The notes beneath the pieces were generated by a model. The model had not been told where the DNA came from. It searched no databases and saw nothing but the letters and a program-made list of their open reading frames with translations. DNA of 64,000 nucleotides. It comes from Ruminococcus sp. CAG:254. GTDB lineage: Bacteria; Bacillota; Clostridia; Oscillospirales; Ruminococcaceae. The stretch covers positions 129,882-193,881 of the forward strand of contig HF997977.1 of assembly GCA_000433635.1 (NCBI GenBank). The letters are read 5' to 3'. A program made the translations under genes and the position numbers. This document shows, piece after piece, positions 1,989 to 41,185 of the stretch (position 1 is its first letter; each line of letters begins with the position of its first letter).

Positions 1989-2084
1989 AATGACACCTCT
2001 GAATTTGATGAAATCGTTTTAAAATAGGGGATTGTGTTTCAATTTTGCAGAAAGTTGCGAAATTGCCTCAATACACCATGTTAA

Positions 2085-2112
2085 TTATAATACAGAAAAC
2101 CTCGTTTGTCAA
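2085..2112 (-). promoter_or_regulatory. sigma-A promoter TTGACA-16-TATAAT upstream of the carboxypeptidase gene
   Basis: Minus-strand TTGACA (2112..2107) and TATAAT (2090..2085), about 95 nt upstream of ATG 1988. Confidence 0.45.
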
Positions 2113-7261: not shown

Positions 7262-7290
7262 TTGACAATCAAAAGGGCTTGGGGTATAAT
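7262..7290 (+). promoter_or_regulatory. perfect consensus sigma-A promoter TTGACA-17-TATAAT for the GH48 cellulase
   Basis: TTGACA 7262-7267, 17-nt spacer, TATAAT 7285-7290. Leaves an approximately 210-nt 5' UTR. Confidence 0.7.
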
Positions 7291-10657: not shown

Positions 10658-10686
10658 TTGACAACGGACGAGAGAAGTTGTATAAT
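10658..10686 (+). promoter_or_regulatory. perfect consensus sigma-A promoter TTGACA-17-TATAAT
   Basis: TTGACA 10658-10663 and TATAAT 10681-10686. Confidence 0.65.
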
Positions 10687-12805: not shown

Positions 12806-12834
12806 TTGACAAAAACAAATTTTACTTGTATAAT
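12806..12834 (+). promoter_or_regulatory. perfect consensus sigma-A promoter (TTGACA-17-TGTATAAT) for pncA-pncB
   Basis: TTGACA 12806-12811, TATAAT 12829-12834, with TG at the -15/-14 position. Confidence 0.65.
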
Positions 12835-28984: not shown

Positions 28985-30826
28985 TTAAACCTCCATGGTT
29001 GCCGGTTCTTTTTCCGGCAGTTCCAAATACTGTTTCCAGAAAGAAAGCTGCATCAATTTCTTTCCGTTTTCTGCATAGTCCCGAACAGCCGCATCATACA
29101 GCTTATCCAGCTGATGATACAATGCCTTTAAGCGGCGGAAGCACTGCTTTGCAGCTTCCGGATCTCGCTCGGTCACAAATCCCTTTCGGCTGGTATAGTC
29201 ATAGTTGAGAATGGTCTGTGTCCGATAGACAGCACTTTGCTGAACGCCATCTGTCGGAACGATGTTAAATTGCCGCTTGACGGGCAGCCGCAGCCCGTTC
29301 ATAGTCAGTTTGTTGATGACACGTTGATGAAATTTTGTTGCCGGAACGGCTTTGCAGGCAGCTTCATAAATCGGGAAAGAGAATTGCACATCTTCTTTCA
29401 AATCTTCTGTATACTGCAATTTATAGCCCAGTTGCATAATTTCCTTGTGCAGGGCTTCGCCGTCCTGTTCCATCAGCCAGTTGACCCCACGCAGGAAGTC
29501 TTCCACACCCTGCATGAGCAGATTTGCATTTTTATAGCGATAGAGCCGCATTTCGTTATAGACTTGTTGTTGCAGGAGGTGGCGGAATGCTTTTTTCGAA
29601 AGGCTCATGTCGTGCAGAGCATTGTCAATCAGACGATTTCTGAGGATATAATAGTACAGGAACGAAGAATACTTGTTTTCAAATGGCTCGTGCCATACAC
29701 AAATTCCGTTCATCAGAACCAGATTTTTCATATTCCGCAAGCCATATTCCACATCATCGCCACGGATGAAAATCGGCATCGGCAAATTCTGGTCGGTTAC
29801 AACCTCGGATGGGAAAACGCAGTACCACCAAGCATTGAACTGTGTTTTTTCTTCCAGTTCGTTGTACAGGCAGGCATCCAGTTCCCGCAGATCCAAACCA
29901 TGCTTCAGGGAAATCAATTCGCCACCGTTCCAGACTGCACCGGCTTCCGTCTGAATGCACTGGGTATCCAGCCGCAGCATCGCACCGCCGATGAACAAAT
30001 CCTGATAGTGTGCCTTGCGGCAGGAGAGAAATGTACAAGTACGGAACAGGGATTCCGGTTCAATGGTGACATCATCATCCATGACCAGAATGTGCGTAAT
30101 GTGACGCTGCTGCTTCACCCGATTGATTTCAATCATTCCACGGGTAAATCCGCCAGCACCGCCGACATTTTTATTTTGTACAATGTGGATATTTTCACTG
30201 CTCAATGCTGGAATATCCAAGGTGTGGGCATTATCAGAAACGAAAACTTCCAGTTTGCCCTGTAAGAAAGAATCGGGGTTTTCCAGAAACCGTTCATTCA
30301 GCAGCTTTAGATTTTTTTCAATAAACCGTTCCCGTTTATACGTGCAAATGTCAATGGCAATTTTCACCGGCTGAATGTCTTTTTCTGCAATGTCGCCGGA
30401 ATAAAAACCGCCGTAGAAACCGGACTGTTCAGAAATGCCGGTGATGTTGAAGCAATAGATACCGTTGGTAGAAACGCTGTGGAATGGAAATGTAAATTCC
30501 TTGATTTCGCCGTAATTGGCTTTGCAGATATATTCACCAAGGAAATCGGTTAAGATTTTTTCGCCTTTCTTTTCTTTCCGCATCAGTGTTAAACGAACAT
30601 GTCCTTCAATTCGGATGGTCAGAAATACGGTTTTTACATTCGTATATTTTGCCCATTTTTCAATGGTAAAGCCGTTAAAATACGTATCAAAAAAGAGAAT
30701 ACCGTCTTTCTGAATTTCAACGCCATCGCTTGACCAGTTGTAAAAGACTTTGTCTCCTCTCCGAAAATACATCAGTTCTTCGGTACAGGTATCGGTAGAA
30801 GGGAATAAGATGTTTTGTAACTTCAT
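28985..30826 (-). CDS. GlfT2-like GT2 galactofuranosyltransferase (N-terminal beta-sandwich, GT-A core, C-terminal helical domain)
   Basis: 613 aa. NVGGAGGFTRG and DXD (MDDD) motifs. Paralogous to 32545..34455. Confidence 0.75.
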   Translation of the reverse strand: MKLQNILFPSTDTCTEELMYFRRGDKVFYNWSSDGVEIQKDGILFFDTYFNGFTIEKWAKYTNVKTVFLTIRIEGHVRLTLMRKEKKGEKILTDFLGEYICKANYGEIKEFTFPFHSVSTNGIYCFNITGISEQSGFYGGFYSGDIAEKDIQPVKIAIDICTYKRERFIEKNLKLLNERFLENPDSFLQGKLEVFVSDNAHTLDIPALSSENIHIVQNKNVGGAGGFTRGMIEINRVKQQRHITHILVMDDDVTIEPESLFRTCTFLSCRKAHYQDLFIGGAMLRLDTQCIQTEAGAVWNGGELISLKHGLDLRELDACLYNELEEKTQFNAWWYCVFPSEVVTDQNLPMPIFIRGDDVEYGLRNMKNLVLMNGICVWHEPFENKYSSFLYYYILRNRLIDNALHDMSLSKKAFRHLLQQQVYNEMRLYRYKNANLLMQGVEDFLRGVNWLMEQDGEALHKEIMQLGYKLQYTEDLKEDVQFSFPIYEAACKAVPATKFHQRVINKLTMNGLRLPVKRQFNIVPTDGVQQSAVYRTQTILNYDYTSRKGFVTERDPEAAKQCFRRLKALYHQLDKLYDAAVRDYAENGKKLMQLSFWKQYLELPEKEPATMEV

Positions 30827-30985
30827 AAAAATCCTCCGCTAGTATTCCAACTCGTTTTTTGCAGGAATACAGAAAAAAATCCGAAGCATTGTTTTATCAT
30901 CATTTGCGAGCAAATACACATTTTTTTTAAAACAATGTCGACTCGGTCGTGCATATTGGGTGCAAAACAATTTCATTTTCTTGTG

Positions 30986-31014
30986 ACCCCATCCTATTAT
31001 AGCGAAAAATAGGC
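30986..31014 (-). promoter_or_regulatory. perfect consensus sigma-A promoter TTGACA-17-TATAAT driving the minus arm of the polysaccharide locus
   Basis: Minus-strand TTGACA 31014..31009 and TATAAT 30991..30986. Leaves an approximately 155-nt leader to ATG 30826. Confidence 0.6.
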
Positions 31015-31199
31015 ATTCTGTCAATCGAATTTCTAAAATATCTTTTTCGGGCTTCGAAATCGTTGGACATGATTTTTTAAAAAATGAGAAAAACGGCAGA
31101 TAGAAGCGGAGAATTGGAGAATCTGCTGCTTGTATTCTGACTTTTCCGATTCCATTTCTTTCTTTTTTTAGACGGATTACAGTTCTTCTGAAAAAAGGC

Positions 31200-31228
31200 T
31201 TGCAATTTAGCGGTTCGTATGATATAAT
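31200..31228 (+). promoter_or_regulatory. sigma-A promoter TTGCAA-17-TATAAT driving the plus arm of the polysaccharide locus
   Basis: TTGCAA 31200-31205 and TATAAT 31223-31228. Leaves an approximately 140-nt leader to ATG 31372. Confidence 0.55.
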
Positions 31229-31371
31229 AAATTTGTTTACATTTGTACTTGTTTTTTGTTGGAAAAGCAGGCGGTGCGAATGAAAATTTCGTGCGGATGA
31301 ATTTTTTGCAAAGAACAAAATTTATTTTAGGAACGTACATATTTTTGTACGACAAGGAGAAAAGGATCATT

Positions 31372-32529
31372 ATGAAAAAGAACAGCATGGCGTATGATAC
31401 GGCAGTTTATAGTCTATGGTTCGGTTTGAATTATGGCAGCATTCTGACCGCCTGTGCATTGTACAAAACGCTGGAACAGTACGGAAAACACCCGGCATTG
31501 CTGCAAAAGCAGCCAGCTCTCTGGGGAGAACATTATGCGGAAAAGGATAACATTGCCGGATGCTTCGCTTATCAGAACTGCGATGTTCTGGAGGTTTTTG
31601 ACAGCGAAGAAGACGCACGGATTTTAAGAGAGGATGTGCAGAATCACGTTGTTGGATCGGATGTTGTTTGGAATTATAATGTGGTAGGCAAGCAATCCGG
31701 TCTGTATTATTTTTTGGAAAATGTACCGGCTGACAAGCGGAAGATTGCATATGCATCTTGTTTCGGCGGAGCATTTCACGCAGAAGGGGAAACCAGAAAT
31801 GATTGCGGCAGATTGCTGCATCAATTCAATGGGATTGCGGTTAAAGAATACGAAGAAGCAGAAGTGTTGCAGGATTTATTCCACATCACACCGGAAATGG
31901 TGTTAGACCCCGTATTTCTGTGTGACAAGCAGTTCTATATTGACTGTGCAGAACGTTCCGCAGCGAAAGCAGTTGAAACAGATCAGAGCTTTATCTTCAC
32001 TTATATTGAATGTTGCGATGACCGGAAGCGGCAGTTCCTGCTGAAGGGCAATGATATTCTGTTGGTCAATCATTACAGCCAGCTGCGGAATTTTATTGAC
32101 ATCAATCGCTTCCCGGAATCGAAAGCACTGCTGAAACTCGACCCAGCTTATCACATTCGGGTGGAAGACTGGCTGTATTATTTGATTCACAGTGAGTTTG
32201 TCATCACAGATAATTATTATGGCATGTGCTTTGCGTTGATTTTTGAAAAGCCGTTTGTGGTACTGGCAAACATGGATCTGCCGGATTTGTACCGGTATCG
32301 TGCGATTTTGCAGCCGCTGGGCTTGGAAGAACGATTGGTCATCTTACAGGAAGACTTGAAGAAGAAAGAATATCTGTTCCGGAAGCCGATTCGATATGAT
32401 CGGGTAAACCGTGTATTACAGAAAATGAAGCAGGATTCGGAAGTTTGGCTGAAGCAGCAGCTCGGCATTGCAGTGCCGGATTCCGCTGCAACAACATCGA
32501 ATCCGCAGGAACAAGCAGTTGGAAAGTAA
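31372..32529 (+). CDS. polysaccharide pyruvyl transferase family protein (stand-alone)
   Basis: YSLWFGLNYGSILTACALYKTLEQYG, GSDVVWNY and SCFGGAF, conserved with the PvT domains of the two fusion proteins. RBS AAGGAGAAAAGG. The ORF-track start at 31243 is an over-extension. Confidence 0.8.
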   Translation: MKKNSMAYDTAVYSLWFGLNYGSILTACALYKTLEQYGKHPALLQKQPALWGEHYAEKDNIAGCFAYQNCDVLEVFDSEEDARILREDVQNHVVGSDVVWNYNVVGKQSGLYYFLENVPADKRKIAYASCFGGAFHAEGETRNDCGRLLHQFNGIAVKEYEEAEVLQDLFHITPEMVLDPVFLCDKQFYIDCAERSAAKAVETDQSFIFTYIECCDDRKRQFLLKGNDILLVNHYSQLRNFIDINRFPESKALLKLDPAYHIRVEDWLYYLIHSEFVITDNYYGMCFALIFEKPFVVLANMDLPDLYRYRAILQPLGLEERLVILQEDLKKKEYLFRKPIRYDRVNRVLQKMKQDSEVWLKQQLGIAVPDSAATTSNPQEQAVGK

Positions 32530-32544
32530 GGGGAACAAGAGTCT

Positions 32545-34455
32545 ATGAGAAACGTAAAGTTTAAAATTCAAAATCTGATTTTTCGGTATAATTTGCAGCT
32601 GGAAGAACACTGGTGGATGATGTATCGTGGTGCAAGAATGCAATATGACCCGCTGACCTCTTCGCAGTATTTGAATCCGGGCGATTTTGTAGAATTTTTC
32701 ACCTATTTCAATTCCTTCTCCCTCGGAAAGTGGAAGAAGTATACCAATGTGGGTGACATTTATCTGCATTTGCGTTGCAAGGGACATTTCAAGCTGCAAA
32801 TGTTCGGACATTATCGAGAAGGCAGAGACATCAAGAAAGAGATGTATGAGCCAGTCATTTATGATTTGAAAGAACTGACCGACATTGAAATGATGGTGCC
32901 GAAGGACAGCAAGGGGCAGGTCATCGGATTTCAGATCGATGTGCTGCCAATGACACCGGAAGAACGAAAAAAGACCGAAATTGCCGAGAAAAAGGGTGTG
33001 AAAGCACCGGATTTCCGGTTTCAGGTGGAATCTGGCAGCTGGGAAACGGTTGTTCCGGAAGAAAAAATCAATGACGTTCGGATTTCCATTGCAACCACAA
33101 CCTTTAAGAAAGAAGATTATATTACTCGGAACATTGGCATTCTGGAACGGGAACTGTTCTACAGTGACGAACCGGCAAAGAATCATATTCGTCTGCGGAT
33201 TATCGACAACGGCAGAACATTAGACCCAGATGAATTCAACAGCGAATACATTCACGTTTACCCGAATGAAAATGTTGGCGGAGCAGGCGGCTTTACAAGA
33301 GGCATTCTGGAATCCATCAGTGCAGAAGATTTCAAGGCAACCCATGTTCTGCTGATGGACGATGATGTTATGGTTTTGCCGGAAAGCTTCATTCGTACCT
33401 ATTCGCTGTTGGCATTGGTAAAGCCGCAGTATAGTGAACGCTATGTCAGCGGTGCAATGCTCTACTTTGAACAGATGAACTTGCAGCACGAAGACGTTGG
33501 CTATGTACACGATGATGGTTCTTATGGCCCAAATAAGCGGATTATGGAAATGCACCGCTGGGATTGCGTCTTTGAAAATGATGAAGATGTAGATTTCCAT
33601 GCAGATTCCTATGCTGGATGGTGGTACTGCTGCATTCCAGTCAAGAAGATTGACCGCAGCCATTTGCCTGTGCCGCTGTTCATTCGTGGCGATGACGTAG
33701 AATTTTCTGTTGCCAACCACGCAGAGTTTTTGACCTTGAACGGTATCTGCATCTGGCACAAGGGCTTTGCGAACAAGTTCAATGCCAATCTGGAATTGTA
33801 CATGGTACACCGGAATAGCTTGATTATTCAGGCAATGAGTGGCATTTGTAAGGATATTGACTTTATCAAGCGGATTCAGGGCTTCTTTGAAACAGAAATT
33901 CGCCGTCTGGCTTATAACAACTGTGATTTGTTGCTGGATGCGGTAGAGGAATTCTGTGCAGGGCCGGACTTCATGAAAACACCGCAGGGCGAACAGATCA
34001 TGAAATCTCATGCTGCAAAGAATGAAAAAATGCGTCCGGCTGCGATGGTATATTCTAAGCCAATCGACTTTGATCGTGTTTATCGAAAGGAAGAAAAGCA
34101 GCTGACACCAACACAGAAGTGGTGGTATGAAGTAACCGATAATGGACAGAAACTGCCGGATTGGTTCTTGAAAAAGGATCAGACCGCAATCATTGCCTAT
34201 GACTGGTTCGATGATCCGACTAAGGAATATTTTGCAGAACAGATTCTGGCAGTCAGCCCGTTTGACCACACTGCTTACCTGAGAAAACGGGATAAGCAGC
34301 GGTATCAGCAGCTGAAACAGCGGTATCAGAGAGTGATGCGGTATTATAAGCAGAACCGGAAACAGATTGAACAGATGTATCAGCAGGCAGCTGGCACATT
34401 ACAGTCCGAATCGTTCTGGAGAGAATACCTGCATATGCCGGAGGCAAAGAAATAA
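32545..34455 (+). CDS. GlfT2-like GT2 galactofuranosyltransferase (second paralog)
   Basis: 636 aa. NVGGAGGFTRG, LLMDDDV and IRGDDVEF motifs. Same three-part architecture as 28985..30826. Confidence 0.75.
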   Translation: MRNVKFKIQNLIFRYNLQLEEHWWMMYRGARMQYDPLTSSQYLNPGDFVEFFTYFNSFSLGKWKKYTNVGDIYLHLRCKGHFKLQMFGHYREGRDIKKEMYEPVIYDLKELTDIEMMVPKDSKGQVIGFQIDVLPMTPEERKKTEIAEKKGVKAPDFRFQVESGSWETVVPEEKINDVRISIATTTFKKEDYITRNIGILERELFYSDEPAKNHIRLRIIDNGRTLDPDEFNSEYIHVYPNENVGGAGGFTRGILESISAEDFKATHVLLMDDDVMVLPESFIRTYSLLALVKPQYSERYVSGAMLYFEQMNLQHEDVGYVHDDGSYGPNKRIMEMHRWDCVFENDEDVDFHADSYAGWWYCCIPVKKIDRSHLPVPLFIRGDDVEFSVANHAEFLTLNGICIWHKGFANKFNANLELYMVHRNSLIIQAMSGICKDIDFIKRIQGFFETEIRRLAYNNCDLLLDAVEEFCAGPDFMKTPQGEQIMKSHAAKNEKMRPAAMVYSKPIDFDRVYRKEEKQLTPTQKWWYEVTDNGQKLPDWFLKKDQTAIIAYDWFDDPTKEYFAEQILAVSPFDHTAYLRKRDKQRYQQLKQRYQRVMRYYKQNRKQIEQMYQQAAGTLQSESFWREYLHMPEAKK

Positions 34456-34475
34456 TTAGATTGGAGGATACAGGA

Positions 34476-37223
34476 TTGTCGAAGAAATACGATGTCGGAA
34501 TTTTAGGCGTATGGATCGGCTGCAACTATGGAAGTATTGCAACTTACTATGCGTTGCATCAAGTCATTGCCTCTATGGGAAAGTCGATTCTGATGATTGA
34601 CAAGCCAATTTTATCAGAAAATGATGTAGAACGAAAAGAAACACATGCAAGAAGATTCGGAAGAGAACATTATCATATCAGCAAGCAGTATTGCTTGGAA
34701 GATTTGAAAGAACTGAATGAACTCTGTGACGGGTTTGTCATTGGCTCTGATCAGGTTTGGAACTATGGAATTAGTCGGGACTTTGGAAAGATGTTCTATC
34801 TGGATTTTGCAGAGGAACAGAAGAAAAAAATCGCCTATGCCGTTTCCTTTGGTCACGATGTAGACTTTGCACCAGCAGAAGAACGGGTGAAAATTGCCGA
34901 TTACATGAGCCGATTCGATGGCATTTCTGTTCGGGAAGCAGATGGCGTGCGACTTTGCCGGGATGATTATGGCATCTTGGCAAAGCAGGTTTTAGACCCA
35001 GTATTTGTAGCTGACCCTTCTATTTATCAGGGACTGATTGAAAAATCTTCTCATCGGGAAGAAGAACCATTTCTGGCATCCTATATCTTAGACCCAACGC
35101 CAGAGAAACGGGAAGCGTTGCTGCATCTTTCAAAGGAACTTGGCGGCATTAAAATCATCAATATGCTGGATGGATTGCCGTGGCTCTTTGAAAAGAATCG
35201 CAAGCTGATGAATTTGCCGAATTGCGTTGAAAATTTGCAGGTGGAAGATTGGCTGTACTATTTGAGTCATGCAAAGTTTGTTGTAACAGATTCCTGTCAT
35301 GGTGCAAGTTTCGCCTTAATTTTCAAGAAAAATTTTATTGCGATCGCCAACAAAAAGCGTGGATATTCTCGGTTCAAGTCACTGGCAGAACTGATGCATT
35401 TTGAATCGCATTTGGTGACAGATGTCAATCAGATTTTAACAGACAAAAAGTTGTTAGAGCCGATTGATTATGCAGCAGTAGAAGCAACCATACTTTCTGA
35501 GCGAAGCCGCTGTTACGCTTGGTTACAGGAAATCTTAAATCAACCGAAAAAAACGACAGAAACATTAAAGTTAGAGAATATTATTGGAAGTCCCAATTCC
35601 AACTCTCCGCATGCAATTTCGGTGCTGAATCGAAAACCCATTCAGAAAAAGAGCATCTCAGCATCAGCAATTACATCAAATTTACCAGTCATAGAATGTG
35701 CAGGCTGTGGGGCATGTGTCAGTATATGTCCAGTAAAGGCGTTGGAACTGAAACCGGATGAACATGGTCTTTATCGTGCCGTATTGAACGAAAAAACCTG
35801 CATCAACTGCGGAAAATGTTTGAAGGTTTGTCCATCTTATCGGCTGCCGTCCAATGCGAACACGACCACACCGAATTGTTATGCAGTGATTGCATCAGAT
35901 GCCGAGTTGCTGAAAAAAAGCTCCAGCGGTGGGGTATTCTCCCTGTTGGCAAAGAAAGCATTTGAACAGCAGGGTGCTGTTGGCGGTGCTGCTTGGAAAG
36001 AGGATCTCTCTGTAGAACATATTTTGATTGATCAGGAATCCGATATGCCGAAGCTGCGGAAATCCAAGTACCTGCAAAGTTATCTGGGCAATATCGATGC
36101 ACAGGTGAAAAAGCGGTTGCAGCAGGGACAGTTTGTATTATTCTCTGGCTGTCCATGTCAGATTGCCGGATTACGGGCATATCTCGGAAAAGATTATGAA
36201 AACCTGATTACCATTGATTTGCTCTGCGGAAACTCCCCATCTGCTGGATTTTTCCAGAAATATCTACAGGATGCTTTTGGGGATCAGGTGGCAAGTTATG
36301 AATTCCGGAACAAAGCACAAGGCTGGAATTCCGATTGTGTAAGCATTCAGTTAAAGTCCGGCGAACAGATTATTCGTCGTGGAAAAGCAGAAGATGCTTA
36401 TCAAAGTGTTTATCATAATCATACAATGTGTCCGCCGCATTGTCAGAACTGTAAGTATCAGCAGTTGCCACGGTTTGGCGATATCACCATTGGGGACTTC
36501 TGGGGCATCTCTAAAAGAATGCCGGAATTTGATTATACAAAGGGTGTTTCTGTTGTCATTTGTAACAATGAAAAGGGACAGGCATTCTTTGACCAGATTT
36601 CCGAACAGGAATTTACGCTGAAAAAGGAAGTTCCGCTGAAGTGGATTGGCGGAAATGGATATGCATTGGAAGGAAAGCATAATTATGCTTCTCCGTATCG
36701 GGATGCATTCTTTGATAAAGTTCGTACAGAGCCATTCGCCAAAGCAGTGAAGCTGGCGTTTGACCAGCAGAATCTAGGAGCTATTCCATCTGAATTTTTG
36801 AATCCGCTGCAATTCCATTCGCAGCAGATAGGATTCCAGTATGACCTTTATACATGGGAACAGCATTTGATTCAGGGAAGATTGGTTTTGATTCCGAAAG
36901 AACAGCAGTCAAAGCCAGGAAATTACGCAAGTATGCCGCTTGCAATGCATCTGCAGGGCGGAAAGCGATATCATTTGTTCATGCGGTTCAAGATTCAGAC
37001 AGAATCACAGTGGCTGAATCTGCATATCAAGGAGGCAGGTTCTAAGCGGCTGCAAATCATTCATCGTCATAAGGTTCAGCCGAACGATGCAAAGGAATGG
37101 GTGACCATTTCCAAGGATTTTGTACCAAATAATGATATTTATTCAGAATTTATGGTTGGTGCAATGCAGATTGCAGGCGAGGGCAGATTCCTTGCGATTG
37201 ACTATATTTATATCACCGATTAA
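34476..37223 (+). CDS. fusion protein with permuted order: polysaccharide pyruvyl transferase domain, then 2x[4Fe-4S] ferredoxin + FrhB/FdhB-like flavoprotein domain, then about 170-aa C-terminal beta-rich domain
   Basis: N-terminal PvT motifs (GVWIGCNYGSIATYYAL, GSDQVWNY, DSCHGASFALIF). CAGCGACVSICP and CINCGKCLKVCP cluster motifs. FrhB-like SSSGGVFSLLAK...GCPCQIAGL. Probable TTG start at 34476, 7 nt after GGAGGA. Confidence 0.8.
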   Translation: MSKKYDVGILGVWIGCNYGSIATYYALHQVIASMGKSILMIDKPILSENDVERKETHARRFGREHYHISKQYCLEDLKELNELCDGFVIGSDQVWNYGISRDFGKMFYLDFAEEQKKKIAYAVSFGHDVDFAPAEERVKIADYMSRFDGISVREADGVRLCRDDYGILAKQVLDPVFVADPSIYQGLIEKSSHREEEPFLASYILDPTPEKREALLHLSKELGGIKIINMLDGLPWLFEKNRKLMNLPNCVENLQVEDWLYYLSHAKFVVTDSCHGASFALIFKKNFIAIANKKRGYSRFKSLAELMHFESHLVTDVNQILTDKKLLEPIDYAAVEATILSERSRCYAWLQEILNQPKKTTETLKLENIIGSPNSNSPHAISVLNRKPIQKKSISASAITSNLPVIECAGCGACVSICPVKALELKPDEHGLYRAVLNEKTCINCGKCLKVCPSYRLPSNANTTTPNCYAVIASDAELLKKSSSGGVFSLLAKKAFEQQGAVGGAAWKEDLSVEHILIDQESDMPKLRKSKYLQSYLGNIDAQVKKRLQQGQFVLFSGCPCQIAGLRAYLGKDYENLITIDLLCGNSPSAGFFQKYLQDAFGDQVASYEFRNKAQGWNSDCVSIQLKSGEQIIRRGKAEDAYQSVYHNHTMCPPHCQNCKYQQLPRFGDITIGDFWGISKRMPEFDYTKGVSVVICNNEKGQAFFDQISEQEFTLKKEVPLKWIGGNGYALEGKHNYASPYRDAFFDKVRTEPFAKAVKLAFDQQNLGAIPSEFLNPLQFHSQQIGFQYDLYTWEQHLIQGRLVLIPKEQQSKPGNYASMPLAMHLQGGKRYHLFMRFKIQTESQWLNLHIKEAGSKRLQIIHRHKVQPNDAKEWVTISKDFVPNNDIYSEFMVGAMQIAGEGRFLAIDYIYITD

Positions 37224-37249
37224 GCGAGAAAATCACATAAAATAAGAAC

Positions 37250-37290
37250 CAGCCAGCACCTTGCGGAAAATGCAGGGGGCTGGCTGGTTT
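37250..37290. terminator. bidirectional terminator (plus arm / dockerin gene)
   Basis: ccagccagc...gctggctgg followed by tttgttttta. Confidence 0.65.
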
Positions 37291-37294
37291 GTTT

Positions 37295-38575
37295 TTATAA
37301 GTAACGATCAATAATGAGTTCTTTGAATTGCTCTAACAATTGTTCATCATTGGAGTCAGACGAAATAATTTCGATTTGATCCAGATAATCATAAATTTCT
37401 TGCTTGGTTGCATCTTTTCCATTAATTCCAGCATATGGTTTCATGCCAGTTGCTTCTATATATATAATATATTTTCCGTAATTTGGATATAAATTTTGCA
37501 AGCCAGGACTGCCACATCCAAGTATCAGATGTCCGACACAATCTGCAAGGTATATTTTATCAATATTATGATCATAAGCAAGCATCGTATGAGAGAATAT
37601 TTGGCTATCTGTGTTACCACCAAAAGAGCCTTGAAAAGTTCCGTCATCGTATACTTGAAAAATGCAATCAGAACATAATTCATGTCTACCTTTAATATGA
37701 TCATATCGACCAATGGTTTCTTCTTTTCCATCACCATCAATATCCAGATAAAAAGTAGATTCTAATGTACCTCCATACAACGAAAAGGGGCTGGAATCTT
37801 TTCTGATAGTAGTCGGAAGTAAAACTGTATCAACCATTCCAGCAGCGTGTTCTGCATAGAGGGAAAGCGTTTTGACAGCGTCCTCAACGGTAACGATGCC
37901 ATCTTGATTGAAATCGGCAGCCTGTTTTTGCAATTCTGTGAAACTTGGCGATTGTCCGGCAGCAGTTGCAGCATAGTAGGAAAGCGTGGCGACAGCATCA
38001 GATACTGTGACATCCGCATCTCCATCGACATCACCATGCCCATAAGCCATTTCATCGAGAAAATCCACGTTGTTCATGTAGGTTTTATACGCTTGTAATT
38101 TATCTGAACCATCCGTATTAGCGTTGTAACTACTTATCAATTTGCTTTGATTGTCAGAATAAAATCGATACAACATTTCAGAGCCAAACATATCTGTATA
38201 AATATATCCGAGAAAGGTTTCACCTGTATTTTTGTCTTGAATGATATGAAATTTGTAATTCATATGGTCGTTTGAAATTCTCTTATATAGAGTATATGAT
38301 TCTGAATTTGTGTCAAATACAGAATAAACATCTGATATAGAATAGCCATCTCTTTTAGAGCCAACATAGTAGTAACCAATTGTTTCTTTTTCGCCGTCAC
38401 TGTCAATATCAATATGAAATTCTTTTTGAAATGTTCCCGTGTATCTTTCTACTTGAATGGTTTCCGGAAACAAAACAACATCTTGTGCAGATGCGGAACA
38501 GGGCTGAACGGCTGCCAGCAAAGCAGCCGCCGCAACCCCCAGTCCCAATTGCAAGATTCTTTTTCTCGCTGTCAT
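37295..38575 (-). CDS. secreted dockerin-containing protein with internal type-I dockerin flanked by two related modules; function unknown
   Basis: Signal peptide ending AVQPCSASA. Dockerin repeats DVDGDADVTVSDAVATLSYYA and DFNQDGIVTVEDAVKTLSLYA near residues 180-240. Repeated IDIDSDGEKETIGYY / LDIDGDGKEETIGRYD in the N- and C-terminal modules. Start is 2 nt after the tgt stop. Confidence 0.7.
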   Translation of the reverse strand: MTARKRILQLGLGVAAAALLAAVQPCSASAQDVVLFPETIQVERYTGTFQKEFHIDIDSDGEKETIGYYYVGSKRDGYSISDVYSVFDTNSESYTLYKRISNDHMNYKFHIIQDKNTGETFLGYIYTDMFGSEMLYRFYSDNQSKLISSYNANTDGSDKLQAYKTYMNNVDFLDEMAYGHGDVDGDADVTVSDAVATLSYYAATAAGQSPSFTELQKQAADFNQDGIVTVEDAVKTLSLYAEHAAGMVDTVLLPTTIRKDSSPFSLYGGTLESTFYLDIDGDGKEETIGRYDHIKGRHELCSDCIFQVYDDGTFQGSFGGNTDSQIFSHTMLAYDHNIDKIYLADCVGHLILGCGSPGLQNLYPNYGKYIIYIEATGMKPYAGINGKDATKQEIYDYLDQIEIISSDSNDEQLLEQFKELIIDRYL

Positions 38576-40324: not shown

Positions 40325-41185
40325 TCAGATAACACCGACAGCTGCAAAAATCAAGACTAAAATACCGAGAACAATTCGATACCAGCCGAAAACGGTGAAG
40401 TCATGTTTGCGGATGTAATCCATCAGGAATCGAATGATAAAGATGGAAACCACGAACGCACTGACCATGCCGACCAGCAGAACGGCAAATTCCATGCCGG
40501 TGAAGTGGAAGCCAAACTTGACCAGCTTTAACAGGCTTGCACCAGCCATGACCGGAACGGCTAAGTAGAACGTAAATTCTGCCGCAGCGGTACGGGAAAC
40601 GCCCAGCAGCAACGCTCCGACAATGGTCGCACCAGAACGGGAAGTACCTGGGAATACGGCTGCAATCAGCTGAAATACACCAATCAGCAACACGGTTTTG
40701 TAATCCAGTCCGCCGATGGAATGAATACGGGGTTGTTTGGTTTTCTGCCAGCGTTCAATCACAATAAACGCAACACCAAACAAAATCAGCATAATGGCAA
40801 CTGTAATCGGATTATAGAAGAGTGCATGAAAGACATCATCAAACAGCAACCCAACTACCGCAGCCGGTACGCAGGCAACTAATACCTTGCACCACATCTG
40901 CAAAATATTTTTCTGCACACACGCCCCGAATCCAGTTTTCGTCAGGGGGTTGGGGTTGGTTTCTTTCTTGTGAAACGGCCAGAGATTTTTCCAGTAGATG
41001 ACAACGACCGCAAGAATTGCACCCAGCTGAATGACCACATCGAACATTTCTTTAAATGCATCGCTGGCATCCAGTTTCAGGAAGGCATCCACTAAAATCA
41101 GGTGTCCGGTGCTGCTGATGGGCAGCCATTCGGTCACACCCTCGACAATGCCTAAGAAGAGTGCTTTTAAAAGTTCCCAAAACAT
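40325..41185 (-). CDS. uppP: undecaprenyl-diphosphate phosphatase
   Basis: GVTEWLPISSTGHL motif and 8 TM helices. Confidence 0.9.
   Translation of the reverse strand: MFWELLKALFLGIVEGVTEWLPISSTGHLILVDAFLKLDASDAFKEMFDVVIQLGAILAVVVIYWKNLWPFHKKETNPNPLTKTGFGACVQKNILQMWCKVLVACVPAAVVGLLFDDVFHALFYNPITVAIMLILFGVAFIVIERWQKTKQPRIHSIGGLDYKTVLLIGVFQLIAAVFPGTSRSGATIVGALLLGVSRTAAAEFTFYLAVPVMAGASLLKLVKFGFHFTGMEFAVLLVGMVSAFVVSIFIIRFLMDYIRKHDFTVFGWYRIVLGILVLIFAAVGVI

Follow-up and report, generated by a model that had tools for sequence, protein, structure and literature searches.

A probable ABC-transporter-dependent galactofuranan locus with two divergent operons of ancient paralogs in a human-gut Ruminococcus

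Lipid-linked polymers of galactofuranose (Galf) have their precedent in the mycobacterial galactan, whose pathway comprises Glf, GlfT1, GlfT2 and the Wzm-Wzt pair (PMC10951656, PMC13018209). In the T1 antigen of Salmonella, homopolymer domains occur in tandem and are made by separate polymerases (PMC11294581). Features of both systems can be found in a 64,000-nt stretch of DNA from Ruminococcus sp. CAG:254 (contig HF997977.1, positions 129,882 to 193,881), which is analysed here over its whole length and referred to below as the window. Between positions 22618 and 37223 of the window, two divergent operons probably form a locus for a galactofuranan surface polysaccharide of the ATP-binding cassette (ABC) transporter-dependent type, composed of ancient paralogs that moved as cassettes and came to their present layout through a lineage-specific rearrangement. 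An abundant human-gut Ruminococcus lineage would accordingly encode a mycobacterial-type GlfT2/Glf/Wzm-Wzt galactofuranan pathway.

The genes were called from the open reading frame (ORF) listing and from Pfam scans. On the minus strand, the core operon begins with GT2_m, a GlfT2-like galactofuranosyltransferase of 613 aa (28985-30826; Pfam Glft2_N plus GT2). It continues with a 914-aa fusion of an FrhB-like part to a polysaccharide pyruvyl transferase (PvT) domain, hereafter FrhB-PvT (26237-28981; assigned by Pfam, AlphaFold2 and Foldseek), then with glf, encoding the UDP-galactopyranose mutase that makes UDP-Galf (25104-26210; Pfam GLF, 2.1e-84), a small ORF of 79 aa (24848-25087), wzm for an ABC-2 permease (23923-24690; Pfam ABC2_membrane, 5e-11) and wzt for an ABC-transporter ATPase (22618-23910; Pfam ABC_tran, 1.8e-23). 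The plus arm harbors a stand-alone polysaccharide pyruvyl transferase, PvT_p (31372-32529; Pfam PS_pyruv_trans, 1.5e-15), a second GlfT2-like galactofuranosyltransferase of 636 aa, GT2_p (32545-34455; Pfam Glft2_N plus GT2), and a strain-variable 920-aa PvT-FrhB fusion (34461-37223; Pfam). The AT-rich spacer between GT2_m and PvT_p, with many short repeats, spans 545 nt (30827-31371). An earlier note on this DNA had given the same gene and domain content for both arms and the same intergenic length. It had also described the arms as mirror images of each other; while the modules do recur on both arms, their order is not mirrored, since the stand-alone PvT of the plus arm has no counterpart on the minus arm and the domain order is reversed between the fusions (minus arm, FrhB-PvT; plus arm, PvT-FrhB). 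The description of the features in that note was largely correct, whereas its evolutionary and regulatory interpretation was not.

Both glycosyltransferases exceed the Pfam cut-off for Glft2_N (26.1 bits), with 40.9 bits for GT2_m and 29.4 bits for GT2_p. In the PDB, GT2_m matches 9dtp (2.9e-31) and GlfT2 itself (4fix, 1.5e-28), and in its alignment to 9dtp the MDDDV, GDDVEYGLR and WH motifs correspond, that is, the DDD metal/donor motif, the DD catalytic pair and the histidine. Pairwise alignment with GT2_m reveals the counterparts LMDDDV, GDDVEF and IWH in GT2_p, and orthologs of the p type give GlfT2_domain3 matches. GT2_m and GT2_p are putative enzymes of processive UDP-Galf polymerisation on a lipid-linked acceptor, a prediction to which the co-located glf lends indirect support. 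Regarding export, wzt closes the core operon in all close relatives, and its product matches the NCBIfam TagH and galactan-export Wzt models at 1e-47 to 1e-54, below their equivalog cut-offs. Wzm and Wzt are both encoded in the operon, and no flippase- or polymerase-like gene of the Wzx/Wzy type was seen among the seven other locus genes scanned with Pfam, which is the arrangement of ABC-transporter-dependent systems. The combination of GlfT2 homology, including the motifs, with glf and wzm/wzt in one operon thus points to an ABC-transporter-dependent galactofuranan pathway.

In such a pathway, Glf would supply UDP-Galf, the GlfT2-like GT2 enzymes would polymerize Galf on a lipid-linked primer in the cytoplasm, the PvT and FrhB-PvT enzymes would add pyruvate-derived decorations, and Wzm/Wzt would export the finished chain, in this presumed order. 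The minus arm would serve as the conserved core operon under a strong, conserved promoter of the sigma-A type. The plus arm would be the strain- or species-variable arm under a second conserved promoter, probably adding a second Galf domain or decoration; by analogy with known antigens, the product could plausibly carry two such glycan domains or decorations. Since Galf is absent from mammals and immunogenic, the product is plausibly an antigen facing the host or its phages.

The synteny of the locus was followed through a genome scan with GT2_m, which yielded 16 loci onto which the window proteins were mapped, and through nine contig look-ups; individual loci are designated below by L numbers. 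The closest GT2_m locus (97% identity) belongs to the metagenome-assembled genome of an uncultured human-gut Ruminococcus. In all relatives with 76-97% identity in GT2_m, the genes GT2_m, FrhB-PvT, glf, small ORF, wzm and wzt are syntenic, and the HD, NifU and cysteine-desulfurase genes flanking the core operon are constant. The opposite arm is composed of PvT_p, GT2_p and either a PvT-FrhB or a PvT-TPP_N fusion in the window, L001, L040 and L021-23, the third gene of this arm being the PvT+TPP_N fusion in L023. In L024, L026 and L027, this arm is replaced by the gene for a 1056-aa GT2+GT4 enzyme, followed in L027 by that for a 1295-aa PvT-FrhB protein. Differences can also be found at the strain level: PvT-FrhB_p, 98-99% identical in other strains, drops to 61% identity in L001 and L038 though its neighbours there are 97% identical, and L044 has no ortholog of it at a threshold of at least 45% identity. 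The dockerin protein adjoining PvT-FrhB_p is likewise 72%, 87% or 100% identical (region 34461-38575, compared in L001, L038, L044 and L046) while the flanking genes are 97-100% identical, which makes the distal part of the plus arm mosaic among strains. Such swapping of the variable arm between strains is consistent with diversifying selection.

The first two genes of the plus arm travel together. PvT_p lies directly upstream of a p-type glycosyltransferase in L001, L007, L010, L021, L040 and L047-L050, and in six other lineages (L007, L010, L047-L050) the pair forms a two-gene cassette that is co-directional with its neighbours. Four of these loci (L007, L010, L047 and L048) have the cassette in one operon with a glycosyltransferase of the GT2_m type, in the same direction; in L007 and L010, only 25-55 nt separate GT2_m from the PvT gene, which has its own ribosome-binding site upstream. 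The cassette is found downstream of the FrhB-PvT gene in L047 and of the gene for a PvT-PvT-TPP_N protein in L049. In L050 (1913-11902), it follows glf, LicD, a nucleotidyltransferase/phosphoenolpyruvate (PEP)-mutase fusion, an iron-containing alcohol dehydrogenase and a thiamine pyrophosphate (TPP) decarboxylase, which suggests that this organism makes a phosphonate-decorated Galf glycan. Divergent operons, paralogous glycosyltransferase and modification cassettes and variable arms are normal for surface-polysaccharide loci, and the feature flagged by the earlier note is ordinary in this respect.

The spacer contains the two highest-ranking sites in a promoter scan of the 16.7-kb locus region. 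The core promoter (30996-31050, minus strand) matches the consensus TTGACA-17-TATAAT at 12 of 12 positions (31024..30996), with the -35 hexamer at 31019-31024, the -10 hexamer at 30996-31001 and an A/T-rich, UP-like stretch upstream; in the form GATTGACA-N17-TATAAT it is invariant in L001, L017, L021, L024, L027 and L040. The variable-arm promoter (31200-31243, plus strand) matches at 10 of 12 positions (TTGCAA-17-TATAAT, 31200..31228) and comprises the -35 hexamer TTGCAA at 31200-31205, a TG-extended -10 at 31221-31228 and a start-site motif at 31229-31243. It recurs in relatives as a TG-extended CTTGC(A/T)-N17-TATAAT followed by AWWTTTGTTTACATT, is kept despite the different downstream genes of L024 and L027, and shows two substitutions in L040. 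By this phylogenetic footprinting, both promoters can be considered real, as the earlier note had proposed when it described a perfect promoter on the minus strand and a TTGCAA-17-TATAAT promoter on the plus strand. The start-site motif, AAATTTGTTTACATT, which stands right after the plus -10, is unique in the window and conserved in relatives with differing downstream genes; it could be an operator or an element of the initial transcribed region. Perfect TTGACA-17-TATAAT sites are common in this DNA, the 64 kb containing 5 perfect sites and 9 that deviate at no more than one position as against 0.39 expected, the four other perfect ones being located at 2084-2112 (minus), 7262-7290 (plus), 10658-10686 (plus) and 12806-12834 (plus); the organism often uses near-consensus promoters. 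When metagenomes were scanned with the core-promoter pattern, most of the matches belonged to the same species; L040 and four unrelated promoters were also recovered, and little leader diversity was gained beyond L040.

Regarding the origin of the two arms, the earlier note had proposed that the PvT/GT2/FrhB block was anciently duplicated as a mirror image around the spacer and that the copies then diverged. These three domain families are indeed found on both strands, each arm presenting, outward, a GT2 and then a PvT+FrhB fusion, and some inverted similarity can be detected at the DNA level within conserved motifs. However, this similarity across the locus is limited to stretches of 42-64 nt (73-83% identity) lying on conserved protein motifs, a motif-sized resemblance that argues against any recent duplication. 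Pairwise alignment of the paralogs had been suggested in the note as a check, with identities so low that independent acquisition becomes the simpler account to be taken as a refutation. The identities are 30% for GT2_m and GT2_p over their full length, 38% and 33% for the PvT and FrhB-like domains of the fusions compared domain by domain, and 29-31% between PvT_p and either fused PvT domain; they were judged to be that low. Such values support the view that the modules of both arms are true homologs of old divergence, and this part of the proposal stands. The inverted duplication itself does not, because the copies are not each other's closest relatives. GT2_m has an ortholog family with 50-97% identity and GT2_p one of its own with 40-98% identity in database searches; a neighbour-joining tree of all GlfT2-like proteins of the compared loci resolves into three deep clades that each cover several genera, namely m, p and x (the last with proteins of 500-550 aa); trees of the PvT and FrhB domains also keep the arm copies apart, and each arm copy resembles its orthologs elsewhere much more closely than its counterpart. 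With m, p and x forming deep clades and ortholog families of their own, widely distributed, the duplications predate the split of these Oscillospiraceae lineages. The domain order of the fusions is moreover permuted, the plus arm is swapped for other genes in close relatives, and L007, L010, L047 and L048 carry these paralogs in tandem on one strand. Since linked copies are tandem elsewhere and head-to-head only in the window's lineage, a local inverted segmental duplication was rejected; it is already contradicted by these data and has to be regarded as highly improbable. As far as gene orders can tell, the divergent layout is a rearrangement specific to the window's lineage. An alternative that concerns the spacer rather than the genes is that of an invertible, phase-variable promoter, as in Bacteroides capsule or Salmonella T1 loci. 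Phase-variable promoters are known at surface glycan loci (PMC11294581), and the base composition and short repeats of the spacer would suit one, but no convincing flanking inverted repeats were found other than low-complexity A/T matches, no recombinase gene was recognised adjoining the locus, and a single orientation was present in 15 of 15 independent metagenome assemblies (14 of the species plus L040), which leaves this alternative with hardly any likelihood.

The leaders of the two operons have likewise received a specific reading, namely that they are targets of a NusG-paralog antiterminator of the LoaP/RfaH/UpxY type encoded elsewhere in the genome. If transcription is assumed to start about 7 nt past the -10 hexamer, the predicted core leader is ~162 nt long (30827-30989, minus strand; start near 30989) and the predicted, species-specific plus leader ~136 nt (31235-31371, plus strand; start near 31235), close to the 140-155 nt claimed for both. 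These leaders are longer than those at the window's other strong promoters, as judged from promoter positions and ORF starts; a polysaccharide operon whose untranslated leader exceeds the usual length in this genome is a feature shared with the LoaP/UpxY/RfaH systems. A possible terminator is furthermore present in the core leader, where a U7 run (30873-30879) comes after a long, AU-rich hairpin (30881-30946). The hairpin is kept in the window, L001, L040 and L017, with 13 pairs, 98% of the cells paired, three compensatory pairs and U5-U7 directly after the stem, all slid controls being far lower. Unlike in the known operons, no NusG paralog can be found nearby: NusG/KOW domains are absent from ten selected window ORFs (eight of them 79-236 aa) and from the Pfam lists of ~10 kb around the orthologs L017-L027, and the sole NusG seen in the compared loci is that of a housekeeping secE-nusG gene in L050. 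There is no Rfam match at the gathering threshold in the whole window, a permissive search of the spacer gave chance-level eukaryotic or viral families only, and no ops-like motif occurs in the leaders at up to two mismatches. Nor is there a conserved leader element, the leaders varying among close orthologs in both length and sequence, unlike the promoters. Leaders that differ between related genomes were the other outcome that the earlier note would have taken as a refutation. Core leaders span 76-163 nt overall: L024 and L027 have 76-78 nt, L021 has ~130 nt, and the window, L001, L040 and L017 have ~160 nt; the hairpin is absent from the shorter leaders of 76-130 nt in L021, L024 and L027. 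The plus leader is shortest in L021 (at most 70 nt) and longest in L024 and L027 (~335 nt), with ~136 nt in the window and ~170 nt in L040; its first ~15 nt are common to L040, L021, L024 and L027, the ribosome-binding region is shared in L040 only, and the rest is unrelated between orthologs. Although the plus leader folds with z = -2.99 relative to shuffles, it is not treated as a structured RNA given this lack of conservation. NusG-paralog antitermination is therefore considered very unlikely.

Another possibility for the core leader, compatible with the galactofuranan locus proposed here, is that its hairpin and U-tract constitute a lineage-specific attenuator or RNA-stability element tuning the core operon, which would act through an unidentified factor or through RNA folding alone. 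The extent of pairing, the compensatory changes, the contrast with the slid controls and the U5-U7 directly following the hairpin in four distinct sequences argue for it. However, these four sequences represent about two independent changes, the stem is weak, AU-rich and closed by a large loop, the terminator scan does not detect it, the core leader as a whole is no more stable than shuffles (z = -0.85), and the element is absent from sister lineages that share the promoter; it thus appears a rather doubtful candidate. Two sequence features of the leaders can be added. The plus leader carries a tandem direct repeat, GTGCGAATGAAAATTT / GTGCGGATGAATTTTT (31274-31289 / 31291-31306), of which an altered copy is present in L001 and none was seen in L040. 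In the core leader, homopolymers vary among assemblies of the same species (L029-L046), with 6 or 7 residues in the U-run (30873-30880) and 7 or 8 in the A/T runs of the loop (30920-30932); this could reflect slippage or assembly noise.

The two fusion proteins associate a pyruvyl transferase with a redox-type domain. The three PvT domains of the locus score 58.3, 92.4 and 97.9 bits with PS_pyruv_trans (cut-off 25.3 bits), and the two FrhB-like domains score 71.9 and 78.7 bits with FrhB_FdhB_C (cut-off 23.3) and 22.0 (borderline) and 29.9 bits with FrhB_FdhB_N (cut-off 22). FrhB-PvT consists, in order, of a 2x[4Fe-4S] ferredoxin plus FrhB-like flavoprotein domain, the pyruvyl transferase, a coiled coil and a beta-rich C-terminal domain. 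A sequence search of FrhB-PvT against the PDB gave ferredoxin-domain matches only, and its parts were therefore compared by fold, with Foldseek on a confident AlphaFold2 model of the whole protein (914 aa; pLDDT 92.6, pTM 0.83). The N-terminal part matches FrhB-family subunits, namely 8rja_E (1.2e-14), 8riu_B, the ferredoxin-dependent chlorophyll reductase HCAR (5dqr) and FrhB (6qii_B), and the middle part matches GT-B folds including the pyruvyltransferase Pvg1p (5ax7). Over 74 homologs, the invariant residues include SSGG, SKYxQ, PCQ, CHG, two more cysteines and GDFWG; they are taken here to be cofactor-binding motifs of the family. The fold, the five motifs and the N-terminal 2x[4Fe-4S] ferredoxin domain are shared with FrhB, FpoF and HCAR, from which the fusions differ in that the domain is joined to a pyruvyl transferase and that the host is a member of the Clostridia. 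Clostridia are not known to make coenzyme F420; HCAR is an FrhB-family member that uses ferredoxin instead of F420. Fusions of FrhB and PvT form a large, unnamed family in gut Clostridia, with 3465 homologs in one search. The beta-rich domain that follows the long coiled coil (residues ~785-914; 26237-26630, minus strand) shows a faint similarity to ILEI (PF15711) and is possibly carbohydrate-binding; in L008, segments resembling it are separate reading frames.

A function can tentatively be proposed for these fusions, although it is rather less than likely: the FrhB-PvT and PvT-FrhB proteins may be two-step glycan-tailoring enzymes that give a lactyl ether instead of a pyruvate ketal. The PvT domain would transfer an enolpyruvyl group from PEP onto a Galf hydroxyl, and the fused FrhB-like flavin/iron-sulfur (FeS) domain would then reduce the C=C bond, in the manner of the MurB and FrhB families, to a lactyl (1-carboxyethyl) ether. 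The product of the locus would in that case be a lactylated galactofuranan. Carboxyethyl sugars have been reported from rumen Firmicutes, and the same logic would explain them, as well as the PvT and reductase gene pairs of Klebsiella K22, K37 and K66. In the literature on FrhB together with pyruvyl transferases, only the Klebsiella gene table turned up. There, the unique PvT gene wcqF of K66 adjoins a 'coenzyme F420 hydrogenase' gene, the unique PvT gene wclZ of K22/K37 adjoins a 'nitroreductase' gene, and K22, K37 and K66 are among four K types that have PvT genes but no pyruvylated (ketal) capsule (PMC4616057, Table S2). The K22 capsule contains 4-O-[(S)-1-carboxyethyl]-glucuronic acid, according to reference 36 as listed in PMC3857182. 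As in the window, a PF04230-type pyruvyl transferase is thus paired with a flavin/FeS reductase-like gene in K66 and K22/K37, but these belong to Wzx/Wzy-dependent pathways and their genes are separate, not fused. The Klebsiella gene pairs, the ketal-free types and the carboxyethyl sugar of K22 together suggest, by analogy and as a hypothesis only, that PvT plus reductase makes lactyl ethers. The fused FrhB-PvT enzymes provide a testable hypothesis on the synthesis of lactyl-ether sugars.

Other associations of PvT can be found in the compared loci. Fusions of PvT with TPP_enzyme_N occur in L047 (9528-12395), L048 (11955-14780), L023 (317-3097) and L049 (4699-8625). In L023, L047 and L048 they take the place of the window's PvT-FrhB, and in L047 and L048 they are followed by a zinc alcohol dehydrogenase gene. 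These fusions and the alcohol dehydrogenase after them hint at a broader toolkit for remodelling pyruvate-derived substituents.

Some further features of the locus can be described. Residues ~250-430 of Wzt (22618-23160, minus strand) comprise a Pro/Lys-rich linker and a C-terminal domain of ~135 aa without Pfam match. This extension of ~180 aa is restricted to the window's lineage, the orthologs of L010, L013 and L014 aligning to residues 1-247 only; by analogy with the carbohydrate-binding domains of other Wzt proteins, it might recognize the glycan terminus. The 79-aa product of the small ORF looks cytoplasmic and has zero Pfam or NCBIfam matches; its gene lies between glf and wzm in all close relatives, with counterparts of 77-78 aa and 64-70% identity at the same position in L017, L021 and L024. 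At the other end of the locus, the GC-rich inverted repeat I8 (37240-37296; 25-nt arms, 80% complementary, 7-nt loop) lies between the plus arm and the dockerin gene, which converge here, and is likely to be a bidirectional terminator. A uppP gene, so named from the ORF reading and its use as a synteny marker, not from a family search, is nearby (40325-41185).

Several points weigh against the galactofuranan locus as it is proposed here. The galactofuranan is a product predicted from genes, and the putative roles of the two arms are suggested by conservation patterns only. Among the genes called between 22618 and 37223, Pfam recognised no initiating phosphoglycosyl transferase, no GlfT1-like primer enzyme and no LytR-CpsA-Psr (LCP) ligase; the missing initiating and primer transferases may be encoded outside this interval. 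Either layout, co-directional or divergent, may be the ancestral one. Finally, no polysaccharide structure of a true Ruminococcus is listed in a review from 2025 (PMC12413058).

Compared with the known systems, the locus shares with the mycobacterial galactan pathway a UDP-galactopyranose mutase, a GlfT2-type polymerase (Glft2_N plus GT-A, with DDD/DD/H) and a Wzm/Wzt exporter. In contrast to that pathway, its host is a Firmicute, two long GlfT2-like paralogs are present and no GlfT1 equivalog, Wzt has an extra C-terminal domain, and the three PvT and two FrhB-like domains have no mycobacterial counterpart; the sequence identity between GT2_m and GlfT2 is also low (E ~1e-28 over ~415 aa). The Salmonella T1 locus (STM0719-0726) and the Klebsiella O1/O2 galactan are likewise ABC-transporter-dependent systems with glf and a GlfT2 ortholog, but they produce lipopolysaccharide O-antigens of Gram-negative bacteria and are without PvT or FrhB modules. 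The T1 locus is controlled by an invertible promoter, of which there is no evidence here. With its tandem domains, the T1 antigen nevertheless appears, by analogy, to be the best model for a conserved core arm combined with a variable arm.

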